Below the pieces are notes generated by a model. That model had not been told where the DNA came from. It saw nothing but the letters and a program-made list of their open reading frames with translations, and did not search any database. Shown here one piece after another: positions 3,069-52,176 of a stretch of 64,000 bases of DNA. The DNA is taken from assembly GCF_053078305.1 (NCBI RefSeq), contig NZ_CP166879.1; one strand, 5' to 3'. A program made the position numbers and the translations under genes. The first letter of the stretch is position 1, and the number at the start of each line of letters is the position of its first letter.

Positions 3069-5105
3069 ATGAATATACGCAACAATCATCTACCGGGAAC
3101 AGAAACTCTTTTTTCTGAAACTGAAACTGCGAACAGTAAACAACTTGCTGTTTTGAAAACTAACTTTCCACAGTGTTTCGATAAAAACGGAGCTTTCATT
3201 CAGGAAAAGCTGCTTGAGATCATCAGAGCATCAAATGTTGAAATCTCTAAAGAGTCATACTGCTTAAACTGGCTTGGCAAATCCTATGCTCGCCTGCTGG
3301 CTAACCTACCACCAACGACATTGCTGTCAGAAGATAAAGACCATAACCGACGTGAAGAGAACAAGAACAGTCAAAATCTGTTAATCAAAGGGGATAACCT
3401 TGAGGTATTAAAGCATATGGTTAATGCTTATTCTGAAAAGGTTAAAATGATTTATATCGATCCGCCATATAACACGGGTTCTGATGGGTTCGCCTATAAT
3501 GATGATCGCAAATTTACACCAGAACAGCTTTCTGATCTGGCGGGTATCGATCTTGATGAGGCTAAACGTATACTTGAATTTACCACGAATGGTTCAAGCA
3601 GCCATAGCGCATGGTTAACGTTCATTTATCCTCGTTTATATATTGCTCGTGAGCTTCTACGTGAAGATGGTGTGATATTTATTTCGATTGACGAAAATGA
3701 ATTAAATCAACTTAAAACTATTTGTGATGAAATTTTTGGCGAAGCAAATTTCATAGAAAATATTGTATGGAATAAACGTATCCCTAAAAATGATAAGGGT
3801 ATTGGTAATATCCATGAGTACATCCTTGCTTATGCGAAGAATAACGAAATAAGTAAAGAATTTTTAATGCGGAAAGATGGTATTGATGATGTATATCAGT
3901 TTATTGAAAAGTTAAAAAAGGAAAAGGTGCCATTAGATAAAGCAGAGCAGCAACTCAAAAAATTCTACAGCTCCAACGGATATGATCGTGGAATTACTCT
4001 TTACAACGGTTTGAACGAGGATTATAGGCCATGGGGTAAAATTAATATGAGTTGGCCTAATGCAGATTCATTTGGACCCACGTATGAAGTATTGCACCCT
4101 TTGACTAATAACCCTGTCAAAATCCCAGACAGAGGCTGGCGTTGGAAAGAAGGCACTTTTAATCATATTGCAAAAAGAATAGATGGAAAGTATGCAGATA
4201 TCAAAAAACTACATGATGGTAGCGTTATTTGTGGTGGAATTTGGTTTGCCCGTACAGAAAAAACCCAACCCAGTTCGGTTAAATTTTTAGATGAAGTTGA
4301 AGAGTTTTTACTAAGATCAATTATTTCAACTAAAAGTGATGGTGGTGTTGAGGTTGAAAATCTTTTTGGTGGGAAAGGATATTTCTCCTACCCGAAGCCA
4401 ACAAGTTTAATAAAAACACTATTTGGTTCAGTAAGAACCGAAGATAAAGACATTTATCTTGACTTTTTTGCTGGCTCTGGAACTACAGCTCATGGTATTC
4501 TGGAGTTAAATATTGAAGACGGCAGGAAAAGAAACTTCATCTGTGTTCAATTAGATGAAGAAACAGATAAAAAGAAACAAGCCTATAAAGAAGGGTATAA
4601 ATCCATCTTCAATATAACAAAAGACAGAATTATTAAGGCAGGAAAAAAGCTGAAAAAAGATAATCCTAATTATAATGGAGATTTGGGATTTAAAATATTT
4701 GAAACAGTTCATGATTTTCGAGCGAAAGATGAGTCTGAACTTACGCTTTCTAATCTTAGTTTCTTTGACGATGCTGTATTGACACCAGAGCAGTATGACA
4801 CTCTATTGACGACATGGTGCGTGTATGATGGCAGCTTGCTAACAACACCAATTGAAGATATTGACCTTAATGGCTACAAAGCACACTTGTGCGATGGTCG
4901 GCTATATCTAATTGCGCCTAATTTCACAAGTGAGGCTTTGAAAGCTTTACTTCAAAAGCTGGATGCAGACAAAGACTTTGCCCCTAACAAAGTTGTATTT
5001 TATGGCAGCAACTTCGAAAGTGCGAAACAGATGGAACTCAATGAAGCACTAAAAAGTTATGCTAATAAAAAATCTATTGATTTAGATTTGGTGGTAAGGA
5101 ACTAA
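3069..5105 (+). CDS. mod: type III restriction-modification DNA methyltransferase (Mod), N6-adenine
   Basis: 678 aa; IYIDPPYNTG (DPPY catalytic motif) and FFAGSGTTAHG (AdoMet-binding FxGxG); GGAGG RBS 6 nt upstream of ATG 3069; res follows directly. Confidence 0.9.
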   Translation: MNIRNNHLPGTETLFSETETANSKQLAVLKTNFPQCFDKNGAFIQEKLLEIIRASNVEISKESYCLNWLGKSYARLLANLPPTTLLSEDKDHNRREENKNSQNLLIKGDNLEVLKHMVNAYSEKVKMIYIDPPYNTGSDGFAYNDDRKFTPEQLSDLAGIDLDEAKRILEFTTNGSSSHSAWLTFIYPRLYIARELLREDGVIFISIDENELNQLKTICDEIFGEANFIENIVWNKRIPKNDKGIGNIHEYILAYAKNNEISKEFLMRKDGIDDVYQFIEKLKKEKVPLDKAEQQLKKFYSSNGYDRGITLYNGLNEDYRPWGKINMSWPNADSFGPTYEVLHPLTNNPVKIPDRGWRWKEGTFNHIAKRIDGKYADIKKLHDGSVICGGIWFARTEKTQPSSVKFLDEVEEFLLRSIISTKSDGGVEVENLFGGKGYFSYPKPTSLIKTLFGSVRTEDKDIYLDFFAGSGTTAHGILELNIEDGRKRNFICVQLDEETDKKKQAYKEGYKSIFNITKDRIIKAGKKLKKDNPNYNGDLGFKIFETVHDFRAKDESELTLSNLSFFDDAVLTPEQYDTLLTTWCVYDGSLLTTPIEDIDLNGYKAHLCDGRLYLIAPNFTSEALKALLQKLDADKDFAPNKVVFYGSNFESAKQMELNEALKSYANKKSIDLDLVVRN

Positions 5106-5107
5106 TC

Positions 5108-8020
5108 ATGTCTAAAGGGTTCACATTCGAAAAAAATTTACCTCATCAAAAGGCTGGCGTTGATTCGGTAATGAATGTCTTTGTATCCGCCATACCTCAT
5201 CAGACGGATCATGTTGCAATTCGCCTGTTAGCTAATCCAGAACTGAATCTATCTGAACAACAATACTACAACAACATAAAAAATGTTCAGGAGTTCAATG
5301 GTATTGAGCACTCAAAAGATAATTACGATGCTAAAAGCAACGTAATTGATGTTTCTATGGAGACAGGTACAGGTAAAACTTATACTTACACCAAAACAAT
5401 TTTTGACCTGAACAAATCATTTGGTATTAACAAATTTATCATCATTGTTCCTACCCTATCGATCAAAGCCGGAACCGTTAACTTTTTAAAAAGCGATGCT
5501 ATAAAAGAACACTTTCGAGATGATTACGAGCGTGAACTAAAGACTTACGTTGTTGAAAGTCAGAAAAGTTCGGGTAAAAATACAAAATCGTATATGCCTC
5601 AAGCTATCCATGATTTTGTTGAAGCAAGTAATTTCAATAAGAAATATATACACATTCTTGTGATCAACTCAGGGATGATTAACTCTAAGTCTTTAACTGA
5701 CACTTATGATGTTGGCTTGCTTGATAATCAGTTTGATACCCCATTTTCTGCACTTAGTGCGATAAAACCATTCATTATCATTGATGAGCCTCATAAATTT
5801 CCTACTGGTAAAAAGACATGGGAACATATTCAAAAATTTAATGCCCAATATATCATCCGCTATGGCGCAACCTTTAGTGAAGGCTATAAGAACTTAGTTT
5901 ATCGTCTTACAGCCGTAGATGCCTTCAATGAAGATCTTGTTAAAGGTATTGATGCATACATTGAGGATATAGTTGGTGATGGTAATGCCAACCTCAAGTT
6001 GGTCAAATCTGACGGAAAAGAAGCTACATTTGAACTGAACGAAAATAATAATAAAAAAATTTTTAAGTTAGCCAAAGGTGAATCACTATCTAAGACGCAT
6101 AGTGCGATCCATGATTTAACTCTTGATGCTTTAAATAAGAATACAGCAGTGTTGAGTAATGGTATTGAGCTAAAAATTGGTAGTTCGATAAACCCCTATT
6201 CTTACGATCAGACACTTGCTGATAACATGATGCGTAAAGCTGTCAAAGAACACTTTAAGTTAGAAAAAGAGTATCTGACACAAAGGCCACGCATAAAACC
6301 TCTTACTCTTTTCTTCATTGATGACATTGAAGGCTATCGTGATGGTAATGATATTGCAGGAAGCCTGAAAACTAAGTTCGAAGAATACGTTTTGGCAGAA
6401 GCAAATGAACTGTTAAAAACAGAGAAAGATGAGTTTTACAGAAACTACCTTGAAAAAACTGTTAAGGATATATCTTCTGTTCATGGTGGTTATTTTTCAA
6501 AAGATAATAGTGATAAAGATGATAAAATTGAGCAGGAAATCAACGAAATCCTTCATGATAAAGAGCTTCTATTGTCTTTAGAAAATCCTCGCCGTTTCAT
6601 TTTCTCTAAATGGACGTTGCGTGAGGGATGGGATAACCCAAATGTCTTTCAGATTTGTAAGCTCCGTTCGAGCGGTAGCACCACATCTAAACTTCAGGAG
6701 GTAGGGCGTGGTTTACGTCTTCCAGTGAATGAATACATGTGCCGTGTGAAAAACCGCGATTTTACTCTCAACTATTATGTTGATTTTACGGAAAAAGATT
6801 TTGTTGATTCTCTTGTAAAAGAGGTTAATGATAGTTCTTTCAAAGAAACTGTTCCAGGTAAGTTTACTCAAGAACTTAAGGATAAAATCTTATCTCAGTA
6901 TCCTGAGCTTTCATCCAGAACACTCATGAATGAGATCTTTGATGCTGAAATTATTGATGATAATGAAAACTTCAAAGATTCCGATGCCTATAGCCGTTTA
7001 AAAGCAAAATATCCGGCTGCATTCCCTACCGGGGTGAAACCAACAAAAATAAAAAAAGCCACGGATGGAAAAAAGCGTACTAAAATGCGTATTGGTAAGT
7101 TCAGTGAGTTGAAAGAACTATGGGATTTGATCAATCAAAAAGTAGTAATTGAGTATAAAATAAATAGTGAAAATGAATTCTTATCCATTTTCAAATCATT
7201 CATGATTGAAGAAACAGATAGATTTACTAAATCAGGTGTTCATACTCGCATTGATAGAATTTATATTCATAATGATACGGCGATGTCGAAAAGTATCGTC
7301 AGTGACGATGATAACTTTGCTAAACTAAACACAATGAGCTATCGGGAATTTCTTGATAACTTATCACAAACTATTTTTGCTAAACACGATACCTTACATA
7401 AGGTTTTTTGTGATATAAAAGACACTATCAATATCACCGACTACCTGAACATTCAGACAATCAGAAAGATTAAATCTGGGTTTAGCAAGTATTTGTTGAA
7501 CAATTCATTTAACAAATTCAGCCTTGGATATAATGTAATTTCAGGCTCAATTCATCCTACAAAATTCACTAATGCAGACGGTAATCACCTGCATGAGGTA
7601 TTATCAGGTGATCTTGGAGTATTACAGGATAATACAAAAGCCCCCCTAGACTCTTATCTTTTTGAAGAAGTTTTTTATGATTCAGAGCTTGAAAGACTCA
7701 ATATAACAGACGGAGAGATCCACTCTGTTGCTGTTTTTACAAAGATACCGAAAAACTCAATTAAAATTCCAGTGGCAGGTGGATACACATATTCTCCTGA
7801 CTTTGCTTATGTTGTAAAAACAACAAAGGGTGACTACCTTAACTTTATTATTGAAACAAAAAATGTCGAAGGTAAAGAAAGTTTACGTAAAGAAGAACTG
7901 GATAAAATAAAGCATGCACAAAAACTTTTCGAACAGGTAAGTAAATCTGTAAAAGTAACTTTTATAACTCAATTCTCAGGTGACAGAATCCATGATCTGA
8001 TAAAAAATGTGATTCAGTAA
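5108..8020 (+). CDS. res: type III restriction enzyme Res subunit (SF2 helicase-nuclease)
   Basis: 970 aa; helicase motif I METGTGKTYT and motif II IIIDEPHKF; ATG 3 nt after the mod stop. Confidence 0.9.
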   Translation: MSKGFTFEKNLPHQKAGVDSVMNVFVSAIPHQTDHVAIRLLANPELNLSEQQYYNNIKNVQEFNGIEHSKDNYDAKSNVIDVSMETGTGKTYTYTKTIFDLNKSFGINKFIIIVPTLSIKAGTVNFLKSDAIKEHFRDDYERELKTYVVESQKSSGKNTKSYMPQAIHDFVEASNFNKKYIHILVINSGMINSKSLTDTYDVGLLDNQFDTPFSALSAIKPFIIIDEPHKFPTGKKTWEHIQKFNAQYIIRYGATFSEGYKNLVYRLTAVDAFNEDLVKGIDAYIEDIVGDGNANLKLVKSDGKEATFELNENNNKKIFKLAKGESLSKTHSAIHDLTLDALNKNTAVLSNGIELKIGSSINPYSYDQTLADNMMRKAVKEHFKLEKEYLTQRPRIKPLTLFFIDDIEGYRDGNDIAGSLKTKFEEYVLAEANELLKTEKDEFYRNYLEKTVKDISSVHGGYFSKDNSDKDDKIEQEINEILHDKELLLSLENPRRFIFSKWTLREGWDNPNVFQICKLRSSGSTTSKLQEVGRGLRLPVNEYMCRVKNRDFTLNYYVDFTEKDFVDSLVKEVNDSSFKETVPGKFTQELKDKILSQYPELSSRTLMNEIFDAEIIDDNENFKDSDAYSRLKAKYPAAFPTGVKPTKIKKATDGKKRTKMRIGKFSELKELWDLINQKVVIEYKINSENEFLSIFKSFMIEETDRFTKSGVHTRIDRIYIHNDTAMSKSIVSDDDNFAKLNTMSYREFLDNLSQTIFAKHDTLHKVFCDIKDTINITDYLNIQTIRKIKSGFSKYLLNNSFNKFSLGYNVISGSIHPTKFTNADGNHLHEVLSGDLGVLQDNTKAPLDSYLFEEVFYDSELERLNITDGEIHSVAVFTKIPKNSIKIPVAGGYTYSPDFAYVVKTTKGDYLNFIIETKNVEGKESLRKEELDKIKHAQKLFEQVSKSVKVTFITQFSGDRIHDLIKNVIQ

Positions 8021-18385: not shown

Positions 18386-19342
18386 ATGTGTGATTTTATA
18401 AAATCATGTTATGCAGCACCAAGAATTAACAAAATGGCTGATTTTTTCTCATCAACAGCATCTGGAGTAAAACATAAACCTTTGAAGCATGTAAAAATTG
18501 ATAACAGGCTTTTCCCATCTCCTGAGTATATAATTTTTTCTGACTATCTTACGAAAAACAGTGGTCCATTTGTTAACCACTACTTTTGCAGTATTCCATA
18601 CAGCAAAGAAGAAGAATGCAGGCTGGGTGTGACTATTATGAAATATGCAAGCCATCGAAATAAGCCATTGAGCTTATGGTGTCTTGGAATGGCAGAAGGA
18701 GCCATGGCCAGAACAATTTCTCAACTATCAAAAGGACAGGTTTTATCATTAACAACCAGCCCAACAAAAGAAAATGAACCTGTATTCTTTAGTCATGGTT
18801 CTCATATTCACTCTTACTTTATTTGCTCCCCATTCTTTCTTGTTCATGAAGAAATAAAAAATAACAACCCTGAACTATTTCCTCATGGTTTTGATATTAT
18901 AATAGAAGATACAACGTTTCAGATGTATTCTCCCGACAGAGAACAACAAATAAAACATGTAAAAAAAACATTAAAATACGATGGTATTTTCATTTTCACA
19001 GAGAAATTTTCCACCTCCACAAAAGAATATCAGATTAGAGAATATCAAAAAGATTTTTCATTTAAACAAAGATATTTTTCACAAGATGAAATAGACGCAA
19101 AAAAAGAAAACGTTCTTAATATCATGAATTTAAATGAAGTAACTCTCGAAAGAATGATTACAGCCATTAAGTCACATTTTAAATATTATTCTGTCTACTG
19201 GAATAGTGGTAATTTCTATTCAATAGCTGCCAGCAATTCGCAAAAAAACATTTCTGACTTTATAATGTTGCTTCCTGAGGCAGCCATACCTATGGAGTAT
19301 GTTTATTTTAAGGTTCCAACCAGAATAACAGGAGTTATATAA
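18386..19342 (+). CDS. hypothetical protein, possibly SAM-dependent methyltransferase-like
   Basis: 318 aa, very AT-rich; weak motif-I-like SLWCLGMAEGAM and motif-II-like FDIIIEDTTF. Confidence 0.4.
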   Translation: MCDFIKSCYAAPRINKMADFFSSTASGVKHKPLKHVKIDNRLFPSPEYIIFSDYLTKNSGPFVNHYFCSIPYSKEEECRLGVTIMKYASHRNKPLSLWCLGMAEGAMARTISQLSKGQVLSLTTSPTKENEPVFFSHGSHIHSYFICSPFFLVHEEIKNNNPELFPHGFDIIIEDTTFQMYSPDREQQIKHVKKTLKYDGIFIFTEKFSTSTKEYQIREYQKDFSFKQRYFSQDEIDAKKENVLNIMNLNEVTLERMITAIKSHFKYYSVYWNSGNFYSIAASNSQKNISDFIMLLPEAAIPMEYVYFKVPTRITGVI

Positions 19343-19346
19343 TCCC

Positions 19347-19922
19347 ATGGACTTCTCAACATTAATAACATTCTCTATTATAACCTTATCACAAACAGTA
19401 TCGATTGGTCCGGGGGTGGCATTAATCATATCTGAAAGTCTGACATATGGTGCAAAAAAAGCAATAACGACAAGTATATATATAAGATTTGGCGAAATTG
19501 TTGTCATGCTAGTCACACTATTTTCTATAGCACTGGCAATCAATTTAGAAAAACATCTTGACACAATAAAAACTTGTGGTGGTGGATATCTGATTTTTCT
19601 TGGTATTACTCGTCTCATCAAGAGAAAAGGATCTAAAGGAAACAAAGCAAATATCCCTTTTTTAATACCGATGCTCAATCCAAAGGCCTTTTTGTTCTTT
19701 GCTGCATTTATGCCATCATTCATAAAAAACAACAGTAACTTTAATACTGACTTTTTGTTACTTTGTATCATTTTTATAATTGTGTCATTACTCACTGACT
19801 TAATATATATATGTATATGTTTAACTATAAGAGGGCGTATAAATTCATCATTTTCAAAATATGTTAATTTTATCAGCTCTTTATTTATACTTTTAACTGG
19901 CGCATATCTGGTTTTTTTATGA
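19347..19922 (+). CDS. LysE/RhtB-family amino-acid or metabolite exporter
   Basis: 191 aa, multi-pass hydrophobic; N-terminal SIGPGVALI resembles the LysE signature; starts 4 nt after the upstream gene. Confidence 0.65.
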   Translation: MDFSTLITFSIITLSQTVSIGPGVALIISESLTYGAKKAITTSIYIRFGEIVVMLVTLFSIALAINLEKHLDTIKTCGGGYLIFLGITRLIKRKGSKGNKANIPFLIPMLNPKAFLFFAAFMPSFIKNNSNFNTDFLLLCIIFIIVSLLTDLIYICICLTIRGRINSSFSKYVNFISSLFILLTGAYLVFL

Positions 19923-20070
19923 TATGCCGTCAGGGTGTGCTTCCTTACATATCACGCCCTCTTCCAGACGTCGCTGGTCGTCGCCCTCTGCGTCCCTTAC
20001 TTTCAGCCCCTCTGAGCATAATCGCCCCTCCAGAGGAGCCCATCACAACGACAATGCCAGCGGGTTAATT

Positions 20071-20643
20071 TTATCTGACCCGGCCTTCAGCCACATCCTT
20101 CACACGTTTAACTAATGGCTCAATAAATTTATCTTTCAGATGCCCCGGTGCCGGAGATGCATACGTTATATATATCCGACTTCCTTTGCCATTTTTTTCA
20201 AGTTCAAGCGTCAGATGATCATCAAACTCGCCACCATCCCAGTCACTGCCCATTTTATAATAACTACCGGGCATGGCATCCCACATATGCCCGTTCTGAC
20301 TTATTGCTGCTGCGGCCCACTTCCCGTTCGCATGTCCGTTATTACGAATCGCATCGACTTCTTCATTTGAATAAAACTTATAGTACCGTTTCAGTCTTCC
20401 CGCAGCTGTATCCACATCAACAGGGACTTCTATGACATGATCACGTTTCTCTCTTTTTGCCCGGGGTGCCTGAGACAGATATTTGAGATCATCATCTGCC
20501 TGGTTTACACCTACGTTCAGTACTTTTGTCACAGCAAATGCACCGTCACTTATCTGCCTGTTCAGCTCTGCAATTTCCTGTGCAGAACAGGCACTCAGCG
20601 CAACACACGAAGCACAAACGAGTAACATTTTTTTAGTCAGCAT
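20071..20643 (-). CDS. putative lipoprotein
   Basis: 190 aa; signal peptide with lipobox VALSAC. Confidence 0.5.
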   Translation of the reverse strand: MLTKKMLLVCASCVALSACSAQEIAELNRQISDGAFAVTKVLNVGVNQADDDLKYLSQAPRAKREKRDHVIEVPVDVDTAAGRLKRYYKFYSNEEVDAIRNNGHANGKWAAAAISQNGHMWDAMPGSYYKMGSDWDGGEFDDHLTLELEKNGKGSRIYITYASPAPGHLKDKFIEPLVKRVKDVAEGRVR

Positions 20644-21601
20644 GTCTTCATCCTCATCAGCAGCTCTTCAGTGGATAACATCCACAGTTACACCTGCATT
20701 TACGCGCAACAAAAACACCAGATGAAGATTTTATTCATTCAGCTCCGCTAAAAATTAATCTTGCTGTGGAATATCGGGAAAACAGGAAGTTACGTTAAAA
20801 GCCGAAGGAAAAACTCACAATCCCTTCTTCAATCAGCCTCTGAAAATCGGCTTTTCAGCATGTCTTCCCCCATTGTTCGTATACCCTGTTCGATGGATTA
20901 TTATTGATCCATATGATCGCTTCACGTAAACACGATTCTGGCTCCACACCATTCTGGACGCGATTGTTACCAAAAAAGACAACCATCACAAGACGTCACA
21001 GACGGTGCGTGCGCTTACTCCTGTATATCTGGCGCAACAGAATCTACCAGTGTAAACTCTCTATGCTTTTGCGCAGAAGCAGTGGGCCTGGGTTCGCTTA
21101 TGTCCTGCATCTACAAGCGAATGACTGACCAGAGACTCCCATATCTGGTCAGTCGCCCATTTTTATTTTCCCTATACACTCAGACTACAATAGCCGTAAC
21201 AAACAGCATACCCCCAGTCATAGTGGCCCCTTTATCTTCTTATGGCTTGTCTGTGGTACTGGAGATAGAGCAACTGTGGGAGTACTGTTATGGCCCCCGG
21301 TAAGAAAAACTCTTGCTTAATGTACAGCAGAACTGTTCCCAGAAAGAAGCCTGTGCATATTTTCATAGAAGGAGATCACCCATAACGGCGTTTTTCACGG
21401 TAATACACGCCAGGTAAAGAATGCTGGATTATCAATCAAAGCTCCGCACAGGAAGCGCTTATGCCGTAGAGCGCCCTCTGGAGAAAAGTGCTACTTCTTG
21501 TCGATTCAGACTAGTTCAGGAAATTATACGAAAATATTACCTGAATGAGCTAAATGTTATTTACCTTCCTTTCTGTTCATTGTAAATTTTTTCTTGCTAA
21601 C

Positions 21602-21620
21602 GCAAATCATTATCATTACG
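21602..21620. promoter_or_regulatory. Fur-box-like sequence upstream of TonB-dependent receptor
   Basis: GCAAATCATTATCATTACG contains AATCATTATC, matching half of the Fur consensus GATAATGATAATCATTATC; about 20 bp upstream of the ATG. Confidence 0.55.
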
Positions 21621-21640
21621 ATTTTAGAAAAGGGAAATTT

Positions 21641-23689
21641 ATGAAGAACAAATATATCATTGCTCCGGGCATTGCCGTGATATGTTCTGCAGTCATATCA
21701 TCAGGTTATGCCAGTTCTGATAAAAAAGAAGATACGCTTGTTGTTACTGCCTCCGGCTTCACTCAGCAACTCAGAAATGCACCGGCCAGTGTTTCAGTCA
21801 TTACTTCAGAGCAACTGCAAAAAAAACCGGTTTCAGACCTGGTCGATGCGGTAAAAGATGTTGAAGGGATTAGTATCACCGGTGGGAATGAAAAACCGGA
21901 TATCAGTATACGTGGGTTAAGTGGCGATTATACATTGATTCTGGTCGATGGACGACGTCAGAGTGGTCGGGAATCCAGACCAAACGGCAGCGGCGGTTTT
22001 GAAGCCGGATTTATCCCTCCTGTGGAAGCAATTGAGCGTATTGAAGTTATACGTGGCCCTATGTCTTCCCTGTATGGTTCCGATGCTATCGGAGGAGTTA
22101 TTAATATCATAACCAAACCTGTTAATAACCAGACATGGGATGGCGTACTTGGGCTTGGGGGAATTATTCAGGAACATGGGAAATTTGGTAACTCAACCAC
22201 GAATGACTTCTACCTGTCAGGCCCATTGGTTAAGGATAAACTTGGTCTTCAGTTATATGGAGGAATGAACTATCGCAAGGAAGATAGTATCTCTCAGGGA
22301 ACACCAGCAAAAGATAATAAGAATATAACGGCAACACTCCAGTTTACTCCGACTGAAAGCCAGAAGTTTGTTTTTGAATACGGAAAAAATAACCAGGAAC
22401 ATACATTAACACCTGGTGATTCTCTTGATGCCTGGACTATGCGGGGAAATCTTAAACAACCAAACAGTAAAAGAGAAACACATAACTCACGTAGTCACTG
22501 GGTAGCAGCATGGAATGCCCAGGGCGAAATACTGCATCCTGAAATTGCTGTTTATCAGGAGAAAGTTATTCGTGAGGTTAAATCTGGTAAAAAAGATAAA
22601 TATAATCATTGGGATCTTAATTACGAGTCAAGAAAACCGGAAATAACCAACACGATCATAGATGCAAAAGTGACGGCATTTCTGCCGGAAAATGTGCTGA
22701 CCATCGGAGGTCAATTTCAGCATGCAGAACTCCGTGATGACTCAGCCACAGGTAAAAAAACGACAGAAACACAGTCTGTTTCAGTTAAACAGAAAGCTGT
22801 TTTTATAGAAAATGAATATGCTGCAACGGATTCTCTCGCCCTGACTGGAGGGCTGCGCCTCGATAACCATGAAATCTATGGCAGTTACTGGAATCCAAGA
22901 TTGTATGCTGTTTATAACCTGACCGATAATCTCACTCTCAAAGGAGGGATCGCAAAAGCATTTCGGGCCCCTTCGATTCGTGAGGTCAGTCCTGGATTTG
23001 GAACACTGACGCAGGGTGGTGCCTCTATTATGTATGGAAACAGGGACCTGAAACCGGAGACCAGTGTAACCGAAGAGATCGGTATTATTTATAATAATGA
23101 CAGTGGTTTTTCAGCAAGCGCGACTCTGTTTAATACAGATTTTAAAAATAAGCTGACCAGTTACGATATAGGCACAAAAGATCCAGTCACTGGGCTAAAC
23201 ACTTTTATTTATGATAATGTGGGTGAGGCAAATATCAGAGGTGTGGAGCTTGCAACTCAGATTCCTGTGTATGATAAATGGCGTGTATCTGCAAACTATA
23301 CATTCACTGACTCCCGTCGAGAAAGCGATGACGAAAGTCTCAATGGCAAGTCGCTGAAAGGGGAACCTCTGGAAAGAACTCCCAGACATGCAGCCAATGC
23401 AAAACTGGAATGGGATTACACTCAGGATATTACATTTTATTCATCTCTGAATTATACAGGAAAACAAATCTGGGCAGCACAAAGAAATGGTGCCAAGGTT
23501 CCCCGTGTTCGTAATGGATTCACTTCTATGGATATTGGTATGAATTACCAGTTCCTGCCAGGCACGCTGATTAATTTTGCCGTACTTAACGTCACAGACA
23601 GAAAGAGCGAAGATATCGATACCATTGATGGTAACTGGCAGGTCGATGAAGGACGTCGTTACTGGGCTAATGTAAGAATATCCTTCTGA
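21641..23689 (+). CDS. ireA: TonB-dependent outer-membrane siderophore receptor (IreA-like)
   Basis: 682 aa from ATG 21641; signal peptide, TonB-box-like DTLVVTA, plug motif IEVIRGPMSSLYGSDAIGGVINIITK, terminal aromatic ...RISF; size and sequence match my recollection of IreA (Iha not excluded). Confidence 0.75.
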   Translation: MKNKYIIAPGIAVICSAVISSGYASSDKKEDTLVVTASGFTQQLRNAPASVSVITSEQLQKKPVSDLVDAVKDVEGISITGGNEKPDISIRGLSGDYTLILVDGRRQSGRESRPNGSGGFEAGFIPPVEAIERIEVIRGPMSSLYGSDAIGGVINIITKPVNNQTWDGVLGLGGIIQEHGKFGNSTTNDFYLSGPLVKDKLGLQLYGGMNYRKEDSISQGTPAKDNKNITATLQFTPTESQKFVFEYGKNNQEHTLTPGDSLDAWTMRGNLKQPNSKRETHNSRSHWVAAWNAQGEILHPEIAVYQEKVIREVKSGKKDKYNHWDLNYESRKPEITNTIIDAKVTAFLPENVLTIGGQFQHAELRDDSATGKKTTETQSVSVKQKAVFIENEYAATDSLALTGGLRLDNHEIYGSYWNPRLYAVYNLTDNLTLKGGIAKAFRAPSIREVSPGFGTLTQGGASIMYGNRDLKPETSVTEEIGIIYNNDSGFSASATLFNTDFKNKLTSYDIGTKDPVTGLNTFIYDNVGEANIRGVELATQIPVYDKWRVSANYTFTDSRRESDDESLNGKSLKGEPLERTPRHAANAKLEWDYTQDITFYSSLNYTGKQIWAAQRNGAKVPRVRNGFTSMDIGMNYQFLPGTLINFAVLNVTDRKSEDIDTIDGNWQVDEGRRYWANVRISF

Positions 23690-24362
23690 GAGAATATAGA
23701 TAACCTGAGGCCGTGCGCCTCAGGTACCAGTATAGTAATCAGTAACGTCAGCTTCCAGGTTGTAATGCTTTTAATTTTGATAAAAATAAACTTAATAAAT
23801 TACATTTGTTAAATATTGATAATTTTAATTTGGTTTTATTACTCCAGTTATACTCACACTCTATCTTTACACAATTCATCACCATTACACCTCCATAGCC
23901 TGTTGATTTAAAAGATTTAATTTCCTGTGAAACAATCAGGCCTGTATGAACCTGATTATACCACAGAATCTTTTAAGTTATTTAAATTTAACTCTCGGGC
24001 TTTTCTGTCAGTAAAATCAGAAAAATTGCAGGATTTCGTTTTTTTTGCTGCGAAGTGAAATGTATCTCATTTTTACTGCCTTCGCCAGTGCGTCAGGCAA
24101 TGGCAGGTAGTGTACCTGCATTCTGCTGTAACGCGTAATGTCGGGTAGTTTACTTAAACTTAATATGTTTTATGTTTGCATTATTATAAATCACTTTATT
24201 GCCTTTTGTCTGCTTTTTAATGGTTCCCGTTTTGTTCACTTCTGGCTTTATAAAAAATGGATGCTGAAGAAATGAAGGTAGTCCACCTTACATAATATTC
24301 ATGCATGATTTTTATGCTATTCCGACTGAGTGGAAGAAAATAAAGGAGAAAAGAGGGTATAT

Positions 24363-27300
24363 ATGAACCTCAGAAAAAAACATATCTGTATAGCCATATC
24401 ACTTGTTCTTAATCCGGCATCCATATCACAGGTCAGTGCTCAGGCAGATACAAATAAGTTAACTGTTGAAGTTGATGAAACCAGCCTTGGCCATGATGTC
24501 TATGGCGATGACTGGAAGAGCATTGAAATAGGTACAACGAAATTTACAGCAAAAGATGAATCAAAGGGAATTAATTTCGACCATAAATCACCGGTGGCTG
24601 AAGGACGTAACTCTATCGCGATTGGTACCAGTGCAGAGGCTGGAGGTGACATTAGCACGAAGGAAGGTTTGTACACAGGCGAGTCTATTGCGATAGGAGC
24701 GAAAACGAAAGCAACTAAAGAACAGTCAATTGCAATAGGTGGCGATACCAAAGCTACCGGATGGGGGGCTATTGTTATTGGTGGGGATGATTTAACTCCT
24801 TTGCATGGTAAGACTTATGGTCGGGAAAAAATAGAGAATGGCTATCTTGCATCGGAAGCGCAGGGGGATGGCAGTATTGCGCTGGGCAGCAGAACTTTTG
24901 CTAAAGGCGAATTGTCAGTATCGCTTGGTTCGGTGAGTTCTGCTGAGGGGATGGCCTCGAATGCAATTGGAGCCACGGCGGAAGCTAAAGGGGATATGGC
25001 GACTGCGGTTGGTTTTAATGCGCTGGCTAATGCCGGTAATGCTCTGGCCGTTGGTAGTCAGTCCTCTGCAAATAAAAACGATGCTCTTGCTGTTGGTTCA
25101 GAGGCAAATGCCGCTCAGAATGAAACGGTTGCCCTGGGGCATGGAGCAACCGTTACTGTCGCAAAGGGGAACGTGTCCATCGGCGCTGACTCCAGGGATA
25201 AGCAGGCACAAAAAGTAACAGAGGCTAAGGTCAGAACTAAAAGAGGCGCGGAAGTCACATATAGTGGCTTTGCCGGAAATAACGCAGCATCAGTAGTATC
25301 TGTTGGTGATGCGGGTAAAGAGCGTCAGATTGTTAACGTGGGGGCGGGTGCGATTTCTGACACAAGTACAGATGCCATTAACGGTAGTCAGTTATATGCG
25401 ATAGCGAAGACACTGAAAGATGACCTTGATGCCATTAATCCGACGTGGACGCTAAAGGATGATAAGGGAGGTTCTGCGACTATTAATGGTGGGAAGGATA
25501 ATAAGAATGGTAACACTTTAACTGTTAAAGGTGATGGAGATATTGCAGTTACTGTTAATGATAAAGGAATGACGATTGACGGAACAACGCTGAAAAATGA
25601 AATAAAAAATGATGCCATCAAAATTAAAGGTGGAGATGGTAAGACGCTGACGAAGAGTCTTGGTGACAATGTCGAAATCACTGGCAAAGGCCCAATAAAA
25701 ACCCAGGTGGCTGGAGATAAACTGGAGATTTCAGCAGAGACAGCTTCGTTGCCTGTAAATGGTGGTAACGGGAAGATTACAGTAAACAATGGTGATGGCG
25801 ATAAACTTGTTACTGCGAAAAACATTGCTGATGCCATAAACCAGTCTGGCTGGAAAATTAAAGCGGATAAAGATACCGGTGGTGTTATCGAGGGAAATGG
25901 TCAGGGAACAGAAACACTGATAAAACCCGGTGATATGGTTACGCTGAAAGCCGGTAAAAATCTCAGCGTGAAACAAAGTGGTGGTGATTTTACATTCTCT
26001 GTTATTGATACTCCGTCATTCAGCAGTGTTCAGCTGAATGGAAAAGGAAATAACGGAAGTGTAACGCTCTCATCCGAAGGTAATAAGCTGACATTGTCAG
26101 GCGGTAATGGTGCCGGACAAAATGGTGTTGTTATCAGTGGTGTGGCAAGTGGACTGGAAGGTAAGGAACTTTCGACGTTAACGAATACTGATAAAGAGAT
26201 GAAAAATGCCGCCAGTGTTGCAGACCTGAAAACGGCAATTGATGGTGTGTCCTCCAGTATGCAGGGTGCAGGTTTCGCACTGAAAGACTCTGATGATAAG
26301 GAAGTGAAACAGTCTCTTGGGCAGGCGATTAAAGTATCCGGGGACAGCAATATCACCACCACAGCCATCACCAATGGGGATAAGGGGTTAAAAATATCCC
26401 TGAATAATGACCTGAGCGTTGGGAGCAATAATACTCCCGGCAGCATCAAAGTTAACGGGGCTGATGGTAAGGAGGCTGTGAGTCTGAATGGTCAGGATGG
26501 CACGATTAAACTGACATCCTCGCCTGCTGCGGGTGGAAAGTCTGCGTCAGCAACCATTGCTGTTAATGCAGGCAAAGGTGGATTAACAGATGCTGCCGGT
26601 ACCACGAAGACACGTCTGACTTATACCCCGGATGGAAAATCACCGGCAGAAGAGCTGGCGACCATGAATGACGGTCTTTCTTTTGAGGGTGATGACGGAA
26701 AGGTTATTCATAAAAAACTGAATGAAAAACTGACCATCAAAGGTGGTGCAGAGAAGAATGCTGAAGTGACTGACGGCAATATCCGGGTTGATAATGATAA
26801 TGGCGGGCTTCTGGTGAGGATGACCAGAAACCTCCGTGATTTGGCCAGCGCGGTTTTTGGTACAGGTGGGCAGATAACAACAGTTAATGATAAAGGCATC
26901 ACAATCACAACACCTGCTGCGGGCGGTGGTCAGGGGAATACGGTTTCCCTTACCGGCTCCGGCCTGAATAACGGTGGAAATCAGATAACCAGTGTGGCCA
27001 GTGGTCTGAACGGCACTGCGCTTGCTGACGCCGGTGGAGATGTTCTGAATAATGCGGCCAATATCGGTGACCTGAAAAATGCTCTCCGTGACAGCAGTGC
27101 GGCACTGGTGAATACCGGCTTTGGTCTGCAGGCGGATGACGGAAGCAAGGTGAACACGTCTCTCGGGAAGCATATCACGGTTGGTGGTGACGGGCAGAAT
27201 ATCAGCACGACTGTTCAGAACGGGAGCCTGACGGTCAGACTCGCTGATAACATTCGCCTGGGAGATGACGGCAGTGTTTCTGTCGGCGGAACCCGGATGG

Positions 27301-28694
27301 ATAAAAACGGACTGACCATCAAGGATGGCCCGTCAGTGACTGTGAACGGTATTGATGCGGCTGGCCGGGTTATTTCCGGCGTGAAAGACGGGGTGAATGA
27401 CCAGGACGCCGTTAACGTTTCACAACTGAACCGTGAAATCAGTCAGGCAACGGCAGCAACGACCTGGGCACTGAAGACTGAATCCGGTGATGAGGCTGTT
27501 GCTGTTTCCTCCCAGACGGTTGAAGTCCGTCACGGACAGAATACCCGGGTTTCAGCCATCAGTAAGGATGATAAGGGAAATTACAGCTATGAGATTGATG
27601 TGACGGGGATTCCGGTGGAGTACACCGACAGCCAGGGGAACCCGCTTGTCAATATTGGTGGTCGTTTTTACACACAGACCGAAGATGCTGCGACCGGGAA
27701 ACTGACAATGACGCCGGCTGAGCCGGCCCGTGTCAGAATAAGCAGTGAGCAGCCTCTTGTTCTGACAAATGTGGCGGCCGGAAATGTGTCACCGGTATCC
27801 ACGGATGCGGTTAACGGGAGCCAGCTGGCATCTGCAGCCAGAATTGCTGGCGGTGATAATGTTGTCTGGAAAGACGGAAAAGCAGCGCTGGCTCCTGACA
27901 CCTTCAGTGAGCTGACAACTGCAGGTGGCGGTAAGACAACGGTGAATGGTGGTGTACATAAAACACCGGATAATGTGGCTGATGCAGTGAATATGCTGAA
28001 CCGTGAAGGCACGAAGTATTTTAAAGCTGCCTCTTCCGGTCAGGCAGCAAAAGCGGAAGGGCGTGACAGTATTGCTGTCGGACAGGGGGCCGTTTCCCGG
28101 GGACAAAACAGCATTGCCATGGGTAATGGTGCTGAAGTCACGCGTCAGGCTGCTGCCGGCTCTGTTGCAGTTGGCAGCCATGCCCGTGCTGGCCGCGCGA
28201 ATACCGGGACTTATGCCCTGAACGGTCAGGCTGTTGCGGGACGTACCGGAAGTGATACTGCGGTGGTTTCTTTTGGTCAGCCGGGACAGGAGCGTCAGCT
28301 GCAGTCAGTGGCACCGGGTGTGTTGTCTGCGAATTCAACGGATGCCGTCAATGGCAGTCAGTTGCATGCAACTAACCGTCAGGTTGCCGGAAATACACAG
28401 GCGATAAACACCCTCGGGAATAAATTCAGTCAGCTGAGCTACCGGGTGGAAGAGCTTAACCGGGATATCCGTGGTGTTGGTGCATCGGCTGCGGCCATGA
28501 GCGGGATACCTCAGGCCTATCTGCCGGGTAAAAGTCTGATGGGGCTGGGTGTCGGTGGATATGGTGGTGAAAGCGCCATTGCAATAGGGGTGTCCCGAAT
28601 CTCCGATAACGGTAAGATGATAATGAAACTGAATGCAGGTCAGAACACCCGGGGTAATTTCTCCGTCGGTGCCGGTGTGGGCTGGCAGTGGTAA
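24363..28694 (+). CDS. trimeric autotransporter adhesin (YadA-like anchor)
   Basis: 1443 aa from ATG 24363 (ORF opens at 24330); signal peptide; recurrent neck motifs DAVNGSQL / AINGSQLYA; YadA-type C-terminal anchor ending GVGWQW. Confidence 0.85.
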   Translation: MNLRKKHICIAISLVLNPASISQVSAQADTNKLTVEVDETSLGHDVYGDDWKSIEIGTTKFTAKDESKGINFDHKSPVAEGRNSIAIGTSAEAGGDISTKEGLYTGESIAIGAKTKATKEQSIAIGGDTKATGWGAIVIGGDDLTPLHGKTYGREKIENGYLASEAQGDGSIALGSRTFAKGELSVSLGSVSSAEGMASNAIGATAEAKGDMATAVGFNALANAGNALAVGSQSSANKNDALAVGSEANAAQNETVALGHGATVTVAKGNVSIGADSRDKQAQKVTEAKVRTKRGAEVTYSGFAGNNAASVVSVGDAGKERQIVNVGAGAISDTSTDAINGSQLYAIAKTLKDDLDAINPTWTLKDDKGGSATINGGKDNKNGNTLTVKGDGDIAVTVNDKGMTIDGTTLKNEIKNDAIKIKGGDGKTLTKSLGDNVEITGKGPIKTQVAGDKLEISAETASLPVNGGNGKITVNNGDGDKLVTAKNIADAINQSGWKIKADKDTGGVIEGNGQGTETLIKPGDMVTLKAGKNLSVKQSGGDFTFSVIDTPSFSSVQLNGKGNNGSVTLSSEGNKLTLSGGNGAGQNGVVISGVASGLEGKELSTLTNTDKEMKNAASVADLKTAIDGVSSSMQGAGFALKDSDDKEVKQSLGQAIKVSGDSNITTTAITNGDKGLKISLNNDLSVGSNNTPGSIKVNGADGKEAVSLNGQDGTIKLTSSPAAGGKSASATIAVNAGKGGLTDAAGTTKTRLTYTPDGKSPAEELATMNDGLSFEGDDGKVIHKKLNEKLTIKGGAEKNAEVTDGNIRVDNDNGGLLVRMTRNLRDLASAVFGTGGQITTVNDKGITITTPAAGGGQGNTVSLTGSGLNNGGNQITSVASGLNGTALADAGGDVLNNAANIGDLKNALRDSSAALVNTGFGLQADDGSKVNTSLGKHITVGGDGQNISTTVQNGSLTVRLADNIRLGDDGSVSVGGTRMDKNGLTIKDGPSVTVNGIDAAGRVISGVKDGVNDQDAVNVSQLNREISQATAATTWALKTESGDEAVAVSSQTVEVRHGQNTRVSAISKDDKGNYSYEIDVTGIPVEYTDSQGNPLVNIGGRFYTQTEDAATGKLTMTPAEPARVRISSEQPLVLTNVAAGNVSPVSTDAVNGSQLASAARIAGGDNVVWKDGKAALAPDTFSELTTAGGGKTTVNGGVHKTPDNVADAVNMLNREGTKYFKAASSGQAAKAEGRDSIAVGQGAVSRGQNSIAMGNGAEVTRQAAAGSVAVGSHARAGRANTGTYALNGQAVAGRTGSDTAVVSFGQPGQERQLQSVAPGVLSANSTDAVNGSQLHATNRQVAGNTQAINTLGNKFSQLSYRVEELNRDIRGVGASAAAMSGIPQAYLPGKSLMGLGVGGYGGESAIAIGVSRISDNGKMIMKLNAGQNTRGNFSVGAGVGWQW

Positions 28695-28718
28695 CAGGGA
28701 AAAGCAAGGAGAAATGTA

Positions 28719-29498
28719 ATGTTATTTAGTCGAATGATGATGACGGGTGTGCTGTCCCTGATGCTTGCAGGATGTGGAAATCTGAGTCATGTCACGGATG
28801 AAGGAACGACGGAAGAAGTGGTATGGCCTTCTCCGGAGAAGGTGATGTTTAATCATGACGGAACACAGAAAGGTTCGTGGCCACTGCCAGAAAAGTTACG
28901 TCAGATAAAGGCGGGTATGAATAAGGACCAGATTTATCAGCTGGCGGGGAGACCACACTTTGCTGAAGGGATGTCTGGTGTAAGGGAATGGGATTACCTG
29001 TTCAACTTTACCGGACCGGAGGGGGATTATACCTGCCAGTACAAGATACTGTTTGACCGGAACATGGATGCCCGCTCTTTCTACTGGAAGCCGGAAAACT
29101 GTCTGCCGGAGGCAGAGACAGCAGAATACAGGGAGTCAGTCCCCGGTGATATATTATTTGATTTTGATTCATGGACTCTGACAGAGAGGGGGCGTGATGC
29201 GCTTTCCCGTGTGGCAGAGAAGTTTCAGGCGGGTCATGTTGTCGGGGTGAAGATAGAAGGATTTACGGACCATCTTGGCGGGCAGGCGTATAACCGGCTC
29301 CTGTCAGAGAAACGGGCGGAATCAGTCAGGGGGTGGTTTATTGCCCGGGGATTCAGGGCTGAAAGGATACATGCAACGGGCCGTGGATATGATGCACCAG
29401 TGGTGTTCTGCCCGGATGTGGAGGGCGAAGCACTGAAGGAATGTCTGCGCCCCAACCGCAGGGTTGAAATAACCGGGGAAACATCAGTGACTGATTAA
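28719..29498 (+). CDS. OmpA-domain lipoprotein, TpgA-like partner of the adhesin
   Basis: 259 aa; lipobox LAGCG; C-terminal OmpA-like peptidoglycan-binding region (GFTDHLG ... NRRVEI); AGGAG RBS, 24 nt after the adhesin stop. Confidence 0.7.
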   Translation: MLFSRMMMTGVLSLMLAGCGNLSHVTDEGTTEEVVWPSPEKVMFNHDGTQKGSWPLPEKLRQIKAGMNKDQIYQLAGRPHFAEGMSGVREWDYLFNFTGPEGDYTCQYKILFDRNMDARSFYWKPENCLPEAETAEYRESVPGDILFDFDSWTLTERGRDALSRVAEKFQAGHVVGVKIEGFTDHLGGQAYNRLLSEKRAESVRGWFIARGFRAERIHATGRGYDAPVVFCPDVEGEALKECLRPNRRVEITGETSVTD

Positions 29499-29612
29499 CA
29501 ATAAAGTGCCCCGGGAACTAATGCCAGTCAGTTCAGCAACTGACTGGCTCTTTTTCGGGGCTGTGGGGTATTTCCAGGGAGCCTGTTTAGGAATCTGTGT
29601 AAATGCCTTTTC

Positions 29613-30134
29613 TCAGAAGTGACCGTCCAGGCGGTCACCGAACTCGATAATAAAGCGGCTCATTGCCATTCGCCGGTTTTGCCATTCTACAACCTGCTCC
29701 ATCACGGCATCGGTGACCTTTGATATCAGTGCCGGTGAAACATCTGCGTCATACAGCTCTTTGAACGCAGCAGCGATCTCACGGGTGGTCATCCCTTTGG
29801 CATACAACGAGAAGATCTGGTTATCCATCCCAGTAATACGGGTCTGATTTTTCTTTACCAGTTGTGGTTCGAAGGTACCGTCACGATCGCGCGGAGTACG
29901 CAGTTCCAGTGGACCGTCGCCTGTGATAACGGTCTTTGTGGAATAACCGTTGCGGGAGTTAGTTCCCGGTTTGGACTGATTTTTCTCATACCCAAGATGG
30001 TGTGTCATCTCTGCATTGAGAGCGGCTTCAACGCTGATCTTTTTCAGTAGACGGTCAAACTGGCTGAGGTCTTCAGGGGTTTTGAGGTTTTTGGCCAGTT
30101 CGTTAGCCAGAGCCTGTAACTGTTTTTCGTCCAT
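29613..30134 (-). pseudogene. IS256-family transposase, 5' fragment
   Basis: 173 aa (MDEKQLQALANELAKNLKT...EWQNR) matches the N-terminal third of IS256-family transposases, then diverges and stops. Confidence 0.7.
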
Positions 30135-44142: not shown

Positions 44143-45348
44143 TTAAGGTTTTAAATTCATTAAGTAATCAATATCAACTGGATGATTATAATCCACTGAC
44201 TCAAATCCAAAACCATTTAATTGTAAAAATTCTTTTTTGTATCCGATATAATCACCTACAGAAGTAAAGTTTTCATCATTCATTTTTGACATCAAATCAA
44301 TTACTTTTTGTTGCACATCCTCTCTTAATTCAAGATCGTCTATGCGAATTAGTCTTGATGAATCAACAACAACATTATCGACATTGTATAAATATTCAGT
44401 AAAAAGACGATGCATTTGTCCAATACATGTTTCATGCAATCCCATAGACTTCATTACCTTATATAAGCAGAGTATATAAGGAGAGAAACAGGGAATATAC
44501 ACACTAGCCTTCGTAACTAAAGCTTTACAAACTACTACATAAGCGCCACTATGTTTATCTGTGGAAATTAATTTATTTAGACGATCAGATGTTTCGTGTA
44601 AATGTTGTTTGGCTTTTCCTAATGTCCCTGTATGATAAATCGGATAAGTCATTTCTGGACCGATATATGAAAAAGCAATTGTTTTGGTCTTCTTAGTAAG
44701 AACATTATTTTCCTTTAACCAAAGTATCCATGACTCCCAGTCATCCCCCCCCATAACTTTTATAGTATCTGCAATTTCAGCCTCTGAAGCAACATCAATA
44801 ATTGTTGATTCAAGTTTATTATCTTCGATATTAACCGTTTTCCCTGTAAAAGCACTGCCAGTCGTTTTTAAACAGGAACGCCAAATGTTACCTGTTGCTG
44901 GATCTGACCTTTGCCCTGTGGCCAGACTATATATAATAAGATCGACCTCGCCATCAAAATCCTTATTTATTAAGTTAAGAACTTTATTTTTTACATCATC
45001 AGAGAAAGCATCGCCAATAACATTATGAGCAATTCTGCCTTCAGCTTCAGCAAATTCCTTAAAGAATATATTATTATACCATCCTGCAGTTCCTATAGAT
45101 TTCTCAGAGGGACCTTTTTCAAACGAAACTCCGATAGAATCGCACTTTGCGCCGCCAAAAGTGAGAGAAATTCTTGCAGCAAGACCAAATCCTGAAGATG
45201 CACCGAGAATCAGAACTCGTTTCGGGCCATTATTAATTTGCTGAAGATGGGACTGGCAATACTTAATCTGTTCCATTATCGCATGACGACATCCCTCTGG
45301 ATGAGCACTTTTCGAGACAACACCTTTAATTACAGGTTTTATAATCAT
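44143..45348 (-). CDS. fabV: trans-2-enoyl-CoA (or -ACP) reductase, FabV/TER family
   Basis: 401 aa; MIIKPVIKGVV, KRVLILGASSGFGLAARI and SYIGPEMTYPIY match FabV/TER throughout. Confidence 0.85.
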   Translation of the reverse strand: MIIKPVIKGVVSKSAHPEGCRHAIMEQIKYCQSHLQQINNGPKRVLILGASSGFGLAARISLTFGGAKCDSIGVSFEKGPSEKSIGTAGWYNNIFFKEFAEAEGRIAHNVIGDAFSDDVKNKVLNLINKDFDGEVDLIIYSLATGQRSDPATGNIWRSCLKTTGSAFTGKTVNIEDNKLESTIIDVASEAEIADTIKVMGGDDWESWILWLKENNVLTKKTKTIAFSYIGPEMTYPIYHTGTLGKAKQHLHETSDRLNKLISTDKHSGAYVVVCKALVTKASVYIPCFSPYILCLYKVMKSMGLHETCIGQMHRLFTEYLYNVDNVVVDSSRLIRIDDLELREDVQQKVIDLMSKMNDENFTSVGDYIGYKKEFLQLNGFGFESVDYNHPVDIDYLMNLKP

Positions 45349-45373
45349 ATAAGGTCCTTGATAGTTAAATAAA

Positions 45374-45790
45374 TTAAGATTTTGGAGCCATGACTACTGC
45401 AATGCCTTCGATTACAACCTCATCATTTTGATTTGTTGTGATTGTTGAAAGCTTTACAATATTTTTTTCTTTATTAATATCAACTACCTCGCAAGTTGCT
45501 TTAACAGTGTCACCAATAAAAACAGGTTTGCGAAAATTGTTTTCCTGACGAAGATATATTGTGCCTTCACCTGGGAGTTTCATACCTAATACTGCTGATG
45601 TTAGAGATGATACAAGAACACCATGAGCTACTCGTTTCTTGAAAATACTCTTCTTTGCAGCTTCCTCATTAATATGAACAGAATTAATATCGCCAGAAAT
45701 ACCAGAAAAAATTAAAACATCTGCCTCTGTTATTGTTTTTTCAAAGCTCGCCTTCTGACCTAAGTGTAGTTTATCAATAGTGTATACCAT
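45374..45790 (-). CDS. MaoC-like (R)-specific enoyl-CoA hydratase / dehydratase
   Basis: 138-aa hot-dog-fold-like protein (DINSVHINEEAAKKSIFKKRVAHGVL). Confidence 0.75.
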   Translation of the reverse strand: MVYTIDKLHLGQKASFEKTITEADVLIFSGISGDINSVHINEEAAKKSIFKKRVAHGVLVSSLTSAVLGMKLPGEGTIYLRQENNFRKPVFIGDTVKATCEVVDINKEKNIVKLSTITTNQNDEVVIEGIAVVMAPKS

Positions 45791-45792
45791 GA

Positions 45793-47358: not shown

Positions 47359-47370
47359 ATTAAACCTCTT

Positions 47371-48708: not shown

Positions 48709-48777
48709 ATTATAACTCTCAATATTAATATTATTATTTAAGTATCTCCTGACAAGCAAGAGATACTTATTTCAAAG

Positions 48778-49986: not shown

Positions 49987-49995
49987 TCCTCCTCC

Positions 49996-50715: not shown

Positions 50716-51088
50716 TTTTATTCCCTCATTTTTGAATATAGAACAGGATGCCTTTCGTTTTGCAACAAAACATCTTTTAACCATTCTCGTTCATAAAGTA
50801 AAACCTTAAAAATACAGAATCACAAAAAAAAAACACTTATAACACTCACGCAACAATCAAAAAATACATTATTTCCCAATGAGTTATCTGTTAATGAAAA
50901 AACAACCACTATATAAAGTGCAATAATCATCACAAACACCTCTTCAAAAATGAAAAACTGTACTTTATAAATAAAACACAAACCACATTACTTCACATTT
51001 ATCAGAAAAATTAAAAACAAAACTTGTTTGATAAATTTAATATGATATTTTCATATTGCATTGAAGTTTTGTTTGCTTGGGTTGATTC

Positions 51089-52003: not shown

Positions 52004-52176
52004 ATCACTTAACTTGATGCATCAATCACCCAGCGACCAGTTATGCTCATCATAATCATTATTCAGGTGTGAGCATAATGAGCATAACCCAGCGATCCAG
52101 ACAGGTTCCCTGAATCTCCAGACAACCAATATCAATTAAATAAGTGATAGTCTAAAAACTAGTCATTAGAGAACAG

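Follow-up and report, generated by a model that had tools for sequence, protein, structure and literature searches.

In extraintestinal pathogenic Escherichia coli (ExPEC), IreA is known both as an iron-regulated receptor associated with virulence and as a vaccine antigen; the uropathogenic strains CFT073 and CP9 carry it, the IreA of CP9 being the one reportedly described by Russo et al. in 2001. Iha resembles it in being a TonB-dependent, Fur-regulated and island-borne receptor of pathogenic E. coli, and is often found near ter genes. CirA, the colicin I receptor and a receptor for linear catecholates and dihydroxybenzoylserine (DHBS; PDB 2HDF/2HDI), likewise has a plug and a barrel and is similar in size to IreA, of which it is a paralogue and not an orthologue; CirA is core chromosomal, whereas ireA is accessory. 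In Pseudomonas aeruginosa, PfeA and PfeE pair a ferric-enterobactin receptor with a periplasmic esterase. Against this background we analysed a 64,000-nt stretch of contig NZ_CP166879.1 (RefSeq assembly GCF_053078305.1), hereafter the window, in which a first-pass annotation made from the letters alone had proposed an IreA-like receptor gene behind a Fur box. We are highly confident that this locus is an intact, Fur-repressed ireA receptor gene on a mobile cassette within an integrative conjugative element (ICE). An ireA with a Fur operator on mobile DNA is already known, and finding one is ordinary.

The gene lies on the plus strand in a 711-codon open reading frame (ORF) at positions 21554-23689 of the window. 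Annotation of the RefSeq orthologue in a 99.9%-identical record sets the start at the ATG at 21641, giving a protein of 682 aa with the N-terminus MKNKYIIAPG, and the first 29 codons of the ORF are non-coding leader and promoter DNA, within which falls the start at 21560 proposed in the first-pass annotation. NF010011, the IreA equivalog of NCBIfam, has a cut-off of 1197 bits and aligns with the protein over its full length (residues 1-682 on model positions 1-682) at 1513.8 bits. Pfam places a Plug domain (PF07715) at residues 44-153 (100 bits) and a TonB_dep_Rec_b-barrel domain (PF00593) at residues 208-651 (186 bits), the pair expected of a TonB-dependent transporter with its plug and 22-strand barrel. 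Its alignment with the IreA of strain CFT073 (WP_000792545.1) is free of gaps, with 670 of 682 residues identical (98%) and twelve substitutions. The closest solved structure is that of CirA (E = 5e-103 over IreA residues 27-678), followed by FepA, PfeA and PirA at about 1e-50; in the structure-database alignment residue 3 of the mature CirA chain pairs with IreA residue 27, which helps to place the predicted signal peptide (Table 1). TonB boxes of the ETxVVTA type are characteristic of CirA/FepA-class receptors, and the DTLVVTA near the N-terminus was judged a match; the chain terminates in RISF, with a C-terminal aromatic Phe.

The locus is thus an intact ireA, not iha. Were it iha, the bifunctional enterobactin receptor and adhesin of tellurite-resistance islands in O157 and uropathogenic E. 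coli (UPEC), the ter operon in the window would be its classical O157 island neighbour, and the two TonB-dependent receptors are alike in length (682 versus 696 aa). The protein, however, shares only 34% of its residues with CFT073 Iha in an alignment with 10% gaps, and Iha has an NCBIfam equivalog of its own; the 696-position model PRK13486, presumably that of Iha, scored 377 bits against a cut-off of 924, and the CirA equivalog also fell below its threshold (398.6/745). With the IreA equivalog matched over its full length, we rejected the Iha assignment, which we regard as scarcely credible. The receptor family named in the first-pass annotation therefore held, and the choice between ireA and iha, which it had based on sequence and length, falls to ireA.

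Upstream of the start codon we detected an array of four hexamers of the GATAAT type (Table 1), three or more of which are looked for in a Fur box; of these, GCTAAC, GCAAAT and ATTACG each match the consensus at 4/6 positions and ATTATC at 6/6. Within the array, AATCATTATC (21605-21614) is a perfect half-site, the same as the rightmost 10 bases of the 19-bp Fur consensus GATAATGATAATCATTATC, and the full 19-mer GCTAACGCAAATCATTATC (21596-21614) matches that consensus at 15/19 positions; an overlapping site on the opposite strand (21602-21620) matches at 14/19. The two sites end 21-27 nt upstream of the ireA ATG, and the array as a whole spans 21-45 nt upstream of it. No site in the 64-kb window lies within three mismatches of the consensus, a search that misses the 19-mer with its four, and we therefore used a full mismatch census and a position weight matrix (PWM) built from 12 other CFT073 Fur motifs backed by chromatin immunoprecipitation (ChIP; Table S5B, PMC7157518). 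The census returned only two window sites within four mismatches, that at 21596-21614 being one of them. By the PWM the two ireA sites scored 14.2 and 14.4 bits and ranked 2-3 among about 128,000 window positions, and dinucleotide shuffles put the chance expectation for sites scoring this high at 0.82 in 64 kb, which comes to about 0.004 for a promoter region of 300 bp. Taken by itself the motif is modest, and its significance comes from where it lies, a short way ahead of the ATG of an iron receptor. The best PWM match in the window is a different sequence, GCTCATCATAATCATTATT (52045-52063; 17.8 bits, 15/19), found in a convergent gap between the gene for a LysR-type regulator (51089-52003) and an IS66-orfA remnant with an IS110 transposase, where it serves no obvious promoter. 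An Rfam scan of window positions 19000-30000 matched no RNA family.

Published work on other strains bears directly on this box. In CFT073 the identical 19-mer is the Fur motif beneath the Fur ChIP-seq peak of ireA (c5174), with a peak amplitude of 1485 and the motif 27 nt from the ATG as in the window, and deletion of fur raised ireA RNA 39-fold and IreA protein 185-fold (PMC7157518). The gene is also iron-repressed in the avian pathogenic E. coli (APEC) strain DE205B (PMC4988017). The CFT073 and window copies agree in protein length, in the 19-mer and its 27-nt spacing, and in cassette boundaries; their DNA is only about 95% identical because the window has the allele typical of Shiga toxin-producing E. 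coli (STEC). We aligned five E. coli contexts (the window, CFT073, STEC 2013C-3033, plasmid pSTEC2018_553-a and MRY15-131), and found a 27-nt block, TTGCTAACGCAAATCATTATCATTACG, invariant in all of them, with variable sequence on both sides: a T/C-rich tract upstream and 8 nt downstream, the latter reading ATTTTAGA in the window and CCTTTGGC in CFT073. At IreA-family loci of other genera (57-75% protein identity), the top Fur-PWM match of the roughly 12-kb locus usually lies upstream of the receptor; its distance from the ATG is 20-45 nt as a rule, with about 145 nt the farthest in a few. The scores go as high as about 20 bits in both Providencia and Limnobaculum, 19.6 bits in Salmonella and 21.9 bits in Morganella. 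Because upstream Fur sites recur across genera in this way, Fur control appears to be an ancestral, conserved property of the IreA family.

The functional promoter probably lies in the 100 nt that precede the ATG, because foreign DNA adjoins the cassette at 21514-21541, this being IS2 or IS3 insertion sequence (IS) elements or unrelated DNA depending on the genome. We noted two candidate promoters there (Table 1). Both hexamers of candidate A are conserved in all five alleles, and this promoter would set the Fur box at about +1 to +25. With candidate B the box would fall in the spacer; in ExPEC alleles, that of CFT073 among them, the -10 of this candidate is TACGCC, which makes it less likely, since ireA is expressed in CFT073. 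Either geometry is compatible with repression by occlusion. Between TAAATT and the Fur-box block, the T/C-rich tract (21586-21593) varies in sequence and by 1-2 nt in length among alleles, and it would coincide with the transcription start if promoter A is real. The first-pass annotation had a near-consensus Fur half-site overlapping the predicted promoter: the half-site is present, but the overlap is tentative, there being two candidates of 8/12 and none of at least 9/12. Its expectation of iron-regulated expression draws support, by analogy, from the identity of the 19-mer to the ChIP-backed CFT073 site and from the derepression of ireA in the fur mutant of that strain.

We propose that when iron is plentiful Fe2+-Fur would occupy the hexamer array at 21596-21620 and block RNA polymerase either at the core promoter or immediately past it, and that under iron scarcity, for instance in blood, urine or the gut lumen, Fur would leave and ireA would be transcribed. 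Several points weigh against this account. The 19-mer carries its four mismatches, the 14 bits of the ireA site lie below every site on which the PWM was trained (17-26 bits), and about 0.8 equally good sites are expected by chance across 64 kb; a sigma-70 scan found no promoter of at least 9/12 upstream of ireA on the plus strand, so that we infer the exact promoter and the repression geometry; and the window allele differs from CFT073 immediately outside the Fur box, the binding and fur-deletion data being those of CFT073. The mismatches, the low score and the chance expectation, together with the higher-scoring 52045 site that has no obvious promoter, would suit the view that an AT-rich leader gave rise to the Fur-like sequence by chance and that ireA is otherwise controlled or constitutive. 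We consider this very improbable, given that the same sequence lies under a strong Fur ChIP-seq peak in CFT073, where ireA is derepressed in a fur deletion, that the box block is invariant while its flanks vary, and that orthologues in other genera have Fur sites of their own, in many cases stronger ones, in the corresponding position. Fur repression is accordingly the explanation we favour, and for the strain of the window it would follow by analogy with CFT073.

Comparison of the locus with other genomes shows that ireA is a mobile, low-GC cassette of about 2.3 kb with its own Fur-controlled promoter. Its limits by blastn are 21514-23831/23832 against CFT073 and pSTEC2018_553-a and 21541-23832 against MRY15-131, and megablast matches begin at query positions 215-242. 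The G + C content (GC) of the cassette is 0.42, against 0.46 for the window, and that of the ireA coding sequence (CDS) is 0.43, with 0.36 at third codon positions (GC3). Of 5426 complete E. coli genomes, 340 (about 6%) have a full-length ireA, so labelled in RefSeq, on chromosomes as well as plasmids, and the STEC-type allele of the window is 99.8-100% identical in 20 mostly STEC genomes. The flanks vary: IS3, IS256 and pap genes in CFT073 (PAI-pheU), IS110 in one STEC genome, and IS3 with a relaxase on a plasmid, with IS2 among the flanking elements in other genomes. A remnant of the Inovirus Gp2 gene that lies upstream in CFT073 was looked for at the window locus and not found. Just beyond the stop codon, a hairpin conserved as part of the cassette (Table 1) is without a U-tract on the plus strand and has a T-rich tail on the minus strand, the only strand on which the terminator scan called it; it is a probable 3' end or stabiliser of the transcript.

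Fragments of the cassette were seen in addition to whole copies. Pieces of the 3' end of ireA (window 23448-23742), 85-92% identical, occur on many E. coli plasmids, and one plasmid that bears a full ireA has a second, partial copy (L067:1828-2058). About 330 bp upstream of the cassette, a patch of about 180 bp (21027-21208) is 86-88% conserved in the CFT073, STEC and plasmid contexts, and the DNA between it and the cassette is not conserved. This patch contains a hairpin with an 11-bp stem (21123-21133 / 21144-21154) followed by a T-run (21160-21169), perhaps the terminator left by an upstream gene that has been lost. A LysE gene upstream of the window ireA was considered as a counterpart of that of Limnobaculum and rejected, the 30% identity over 129 aa being taken as coincidence.

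In the window, ireA is cargo of an ICE. Conjugation genes of the ICE type (TIGR03744, TIGR03755 and TIGR03756) lie at 55-64 kb, a protein family search found IS481 and IS110 transposases, and the syntenic record adds an integrase-domain gene, ArdC, IS256 and IS4. Along with the ter operon, IS remnants and a GC mosaic running from 0.32 to 0.56 along the window, these bear out the island context that had been proposed for the gene. No tRNA or att site was found within the window. Among the complete E. coli genomes searched, the best match covers 8.7-64 kb of the window at about 99% identity, and none spans all of it. The setting differs from that in CFT073, where ireA lies in PAI-pheU with IS256 and pap genes, as opposed to an ICE with a trimeric autotransporter downstream.

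What IreA carries is suggested by its relatives. Counting one genome per species, the nearest non-E. coli relatives are those of Providencia, Limnobaculum, Budvicia and Leminorella (57-61% identity) and of Pasteurellaceae (44-52%), to which the protein database adds Salmonella enterica (75%), metagenomic copies (71-72%) and Morganella (65-66%). In 21 of 25 loci with at least 44% identity, plus Morganella, a PF00756 esterase of about 290-310 aa with a signal peptide is encoded 3' of the receptor; the taxa that have it are Providencia, Limnobaculum, Budvicia, Leminorella and Morganella (Morganellaceae and Budviciaceae) and most of the Pasteurellaceae loci. The esterase directly adjoins the receptor in most loci, the gap being 555 bp in Morganella and about 2.4 kb in one metagenome-assembled genome. 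Its closest solved relatives are PfeE of P. aeruginosa (6GI0, E = 3e-27), the bacillibactin esterase BES and IroE, and the esterase-bearing loci follow the same two-gene logic as PfeA-PfeE. The E. coli cassette differs from that system in being without an esterase, of which tblastn found no remnant downstream of ireA in the window or the E. coli loci; IreA is also nearer to CirA than to PfeA or FepA, and no PfeRS-type two-component regulator was seen, Fur being apparently the sole regulator. Among characterised proteins, IreA is closest to CirA, FepA/PfeA and CfrA. Because of the receptor-esterase pairing and the similarity to the CirA/FepA class, a catecholate trilactone or its linear products are the most likely ligand class, and by analogy the IreA ligand is probably a catecholate, either an enterobactin-type trilactone or linear products. 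One study speculates that IreA may carry enterobactin or salmochelin conjugates (PMC8179508). More tentatively, E. coli ireA may be the orphaned half of an ancestral module of receptor and PfeE/IroE-like esterase whose ligand is an ester-linked catecholate, a reading that we find possible and hold a little less firmly than we doubt it.

Once made, IreA would insert into the outer membrane and import a ferric siderophore with energy from TonB-ExbBD, and in E. coli a catecholate ligand could then be processed by the cell's own Fes, IroD or IroE. On the other side of the balance, the literature calls IreA a 'putative' or 'potential' siderophore receptor without a defined ligand (PMC3852070, PMC7188996), and adhesin and stress-resistance roles have been ascribed to it from the adhesion and stress phenotypes of ireA mutants (PMC4988017, PMC7188996). 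The esterase is moreover absent from the Salmonella (75%) and 72% metagenomic copies as well as from E. coli; because the E. coli copy and its nearest relatives are without it, what the neighbourhoods of relatives at about 60% identity show may not transfer. The putative status in the literature, the mutant phenotypes, the missing E. coli esterase and the STEC-type context that places ireA beside a trimeric autotransporter adhesin, would fit an IreA that is mainly an adhesin or envelope-stress factor, in which siderophore import is vestigial, the partner esterase having been lost and no dedicated periplasmic or inner-membrane transport genes being present. Such a role is unlikely in our view. 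The plug, TonB box and barrel show no damage. Divergent alleles with DNA that is only 95% identical encode proteins that are 98% alike, which implies purifying selection on the whole transporter, and iron importers typically come under tight Fur control. An orphan catecholate receptor could draw on Fes and FepBCDG, which E. coli already encodes, and on the IroD/IroE that it often has. Deletion of ireA in APEC, furthermore, up-regulates other iron-uptake genes (PMC4988017).

Several neighbours of the cassette in the window were recorded in passing (Table 1). The autotransporter downstream of ireA, whose start is likely ATG 24363 and not GTG 24330, and the TpgA-like protein directly after it resemble the AtaA-TpgA pair of Acinetobacter; the pair follows ireA in the window, in JNEC-KY171 and in STEC 2013C-3033, and not in the ExPEC contexts. 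The type III restriction-modification system has counterparts in APEC and poultry isolates at about 94% identity, and the end of the window that holds it is not syntenic with JNEC-KY171, otherwise the closest genome. Between the IS481 and IS110 copies of the ICE, the fatty-acid-type cluster encodes, besides a divergent LysR regulator, a FabV-like enoyl reductase, a CoA-transferase, a thiolase, a FabG-like reductase and an unassigned protein of 462 aa.

Table 1. Positions of the ireA cassette, its parts and other features; coordinates are those of the window unless a locus is named.
Feature	Position	Strand	Description and basis
Conserved ireA cassette	21514..23832	+	Regulatory region, CDS and 3' hairpin; blastn, ~95% identity, ExPEC and plasmid contexts
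Smallest upstream region kept in all contexts	21541..21640	+	100 nt before the ATG; putative promoter and operator
Candidate promoter A	21560..21588	+	TTTACC (21560-21565), 17 nt, TAAATT (21583-21588); 8/12, putative
Candidate promoter B	21594..21622	+	TTGCTA (21594-21599), 17 nt, TACGAT (21617-21622); 8/12, sequence reading
Fur box array	21596..21620	.	GCTAAC GCAAAT C ATTATC ATTACG; overlapping 15/19 and 14/19 sites
Ribosome-binding site	21630..21635	+	AAGGGA, 5 nt 5' of the ATG; sequence reading, invariant across the five-allele alignment
ireA CDS	21641..23689	+	TonB-dependent outer-membrane siderophore receptor, 682 aa; NF010011, Plug and barrel, RefSeq start
Signal peptide (predicted)	21641..21712	+	Residues 1-24, MKNKYIIAPGIAVICSAVISSGYA; hydrophobic core, ...GYA|SS cleavage site
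TonB box	21731..21751	+	DTLVVTA, residues 31-37; translation reading
3' hairpin	23703..23725	.	GC-rich, perfect 9-bp stem, 14 nt past the ireA stop; -21.5 kcal/mol, z = -4.4 (RNA fold)
Type III restriction-modification system	3069-8020		Methyltransferase and 970-aa endonuclease; GC ~0.35
Trimeric autotransporter adhesin	24363-28694		1443/1454 aa; YadA head, stalk and anchor; weak EmaA/Ata similarity
TpgA-like protein	28719-29498		OmpA family, directly after the autotransporter
Fatty-acid-type cluster	44143-52003		Very low GC (0.32-0.37)
Esterase, example	L008:7068-8003		IreA-family locus of another genome
Esterase, example	L011:7033-7968		IreA-family locus of another genome
Esterase, example	L073:7596-8456		IreA-family locus of another genome

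The copy in the window adds a data point on the spread of the cassette, as a STEC-type allele in an ICE beside a trimeric autotransporter, and no new biology. The receptor-esterase pairing in other genera is the only mildly new element, and it offers a testable hypothesis for the IreA ligand. If E. coli ireA is indeed one half of such a module, the ligand would be enterobactin, salmochelin or related trilactone or linear products, and what E. coli captured would be a bare Fur-controlled cassette whose receptor relies on the Fes, IroD or IroE of its host.

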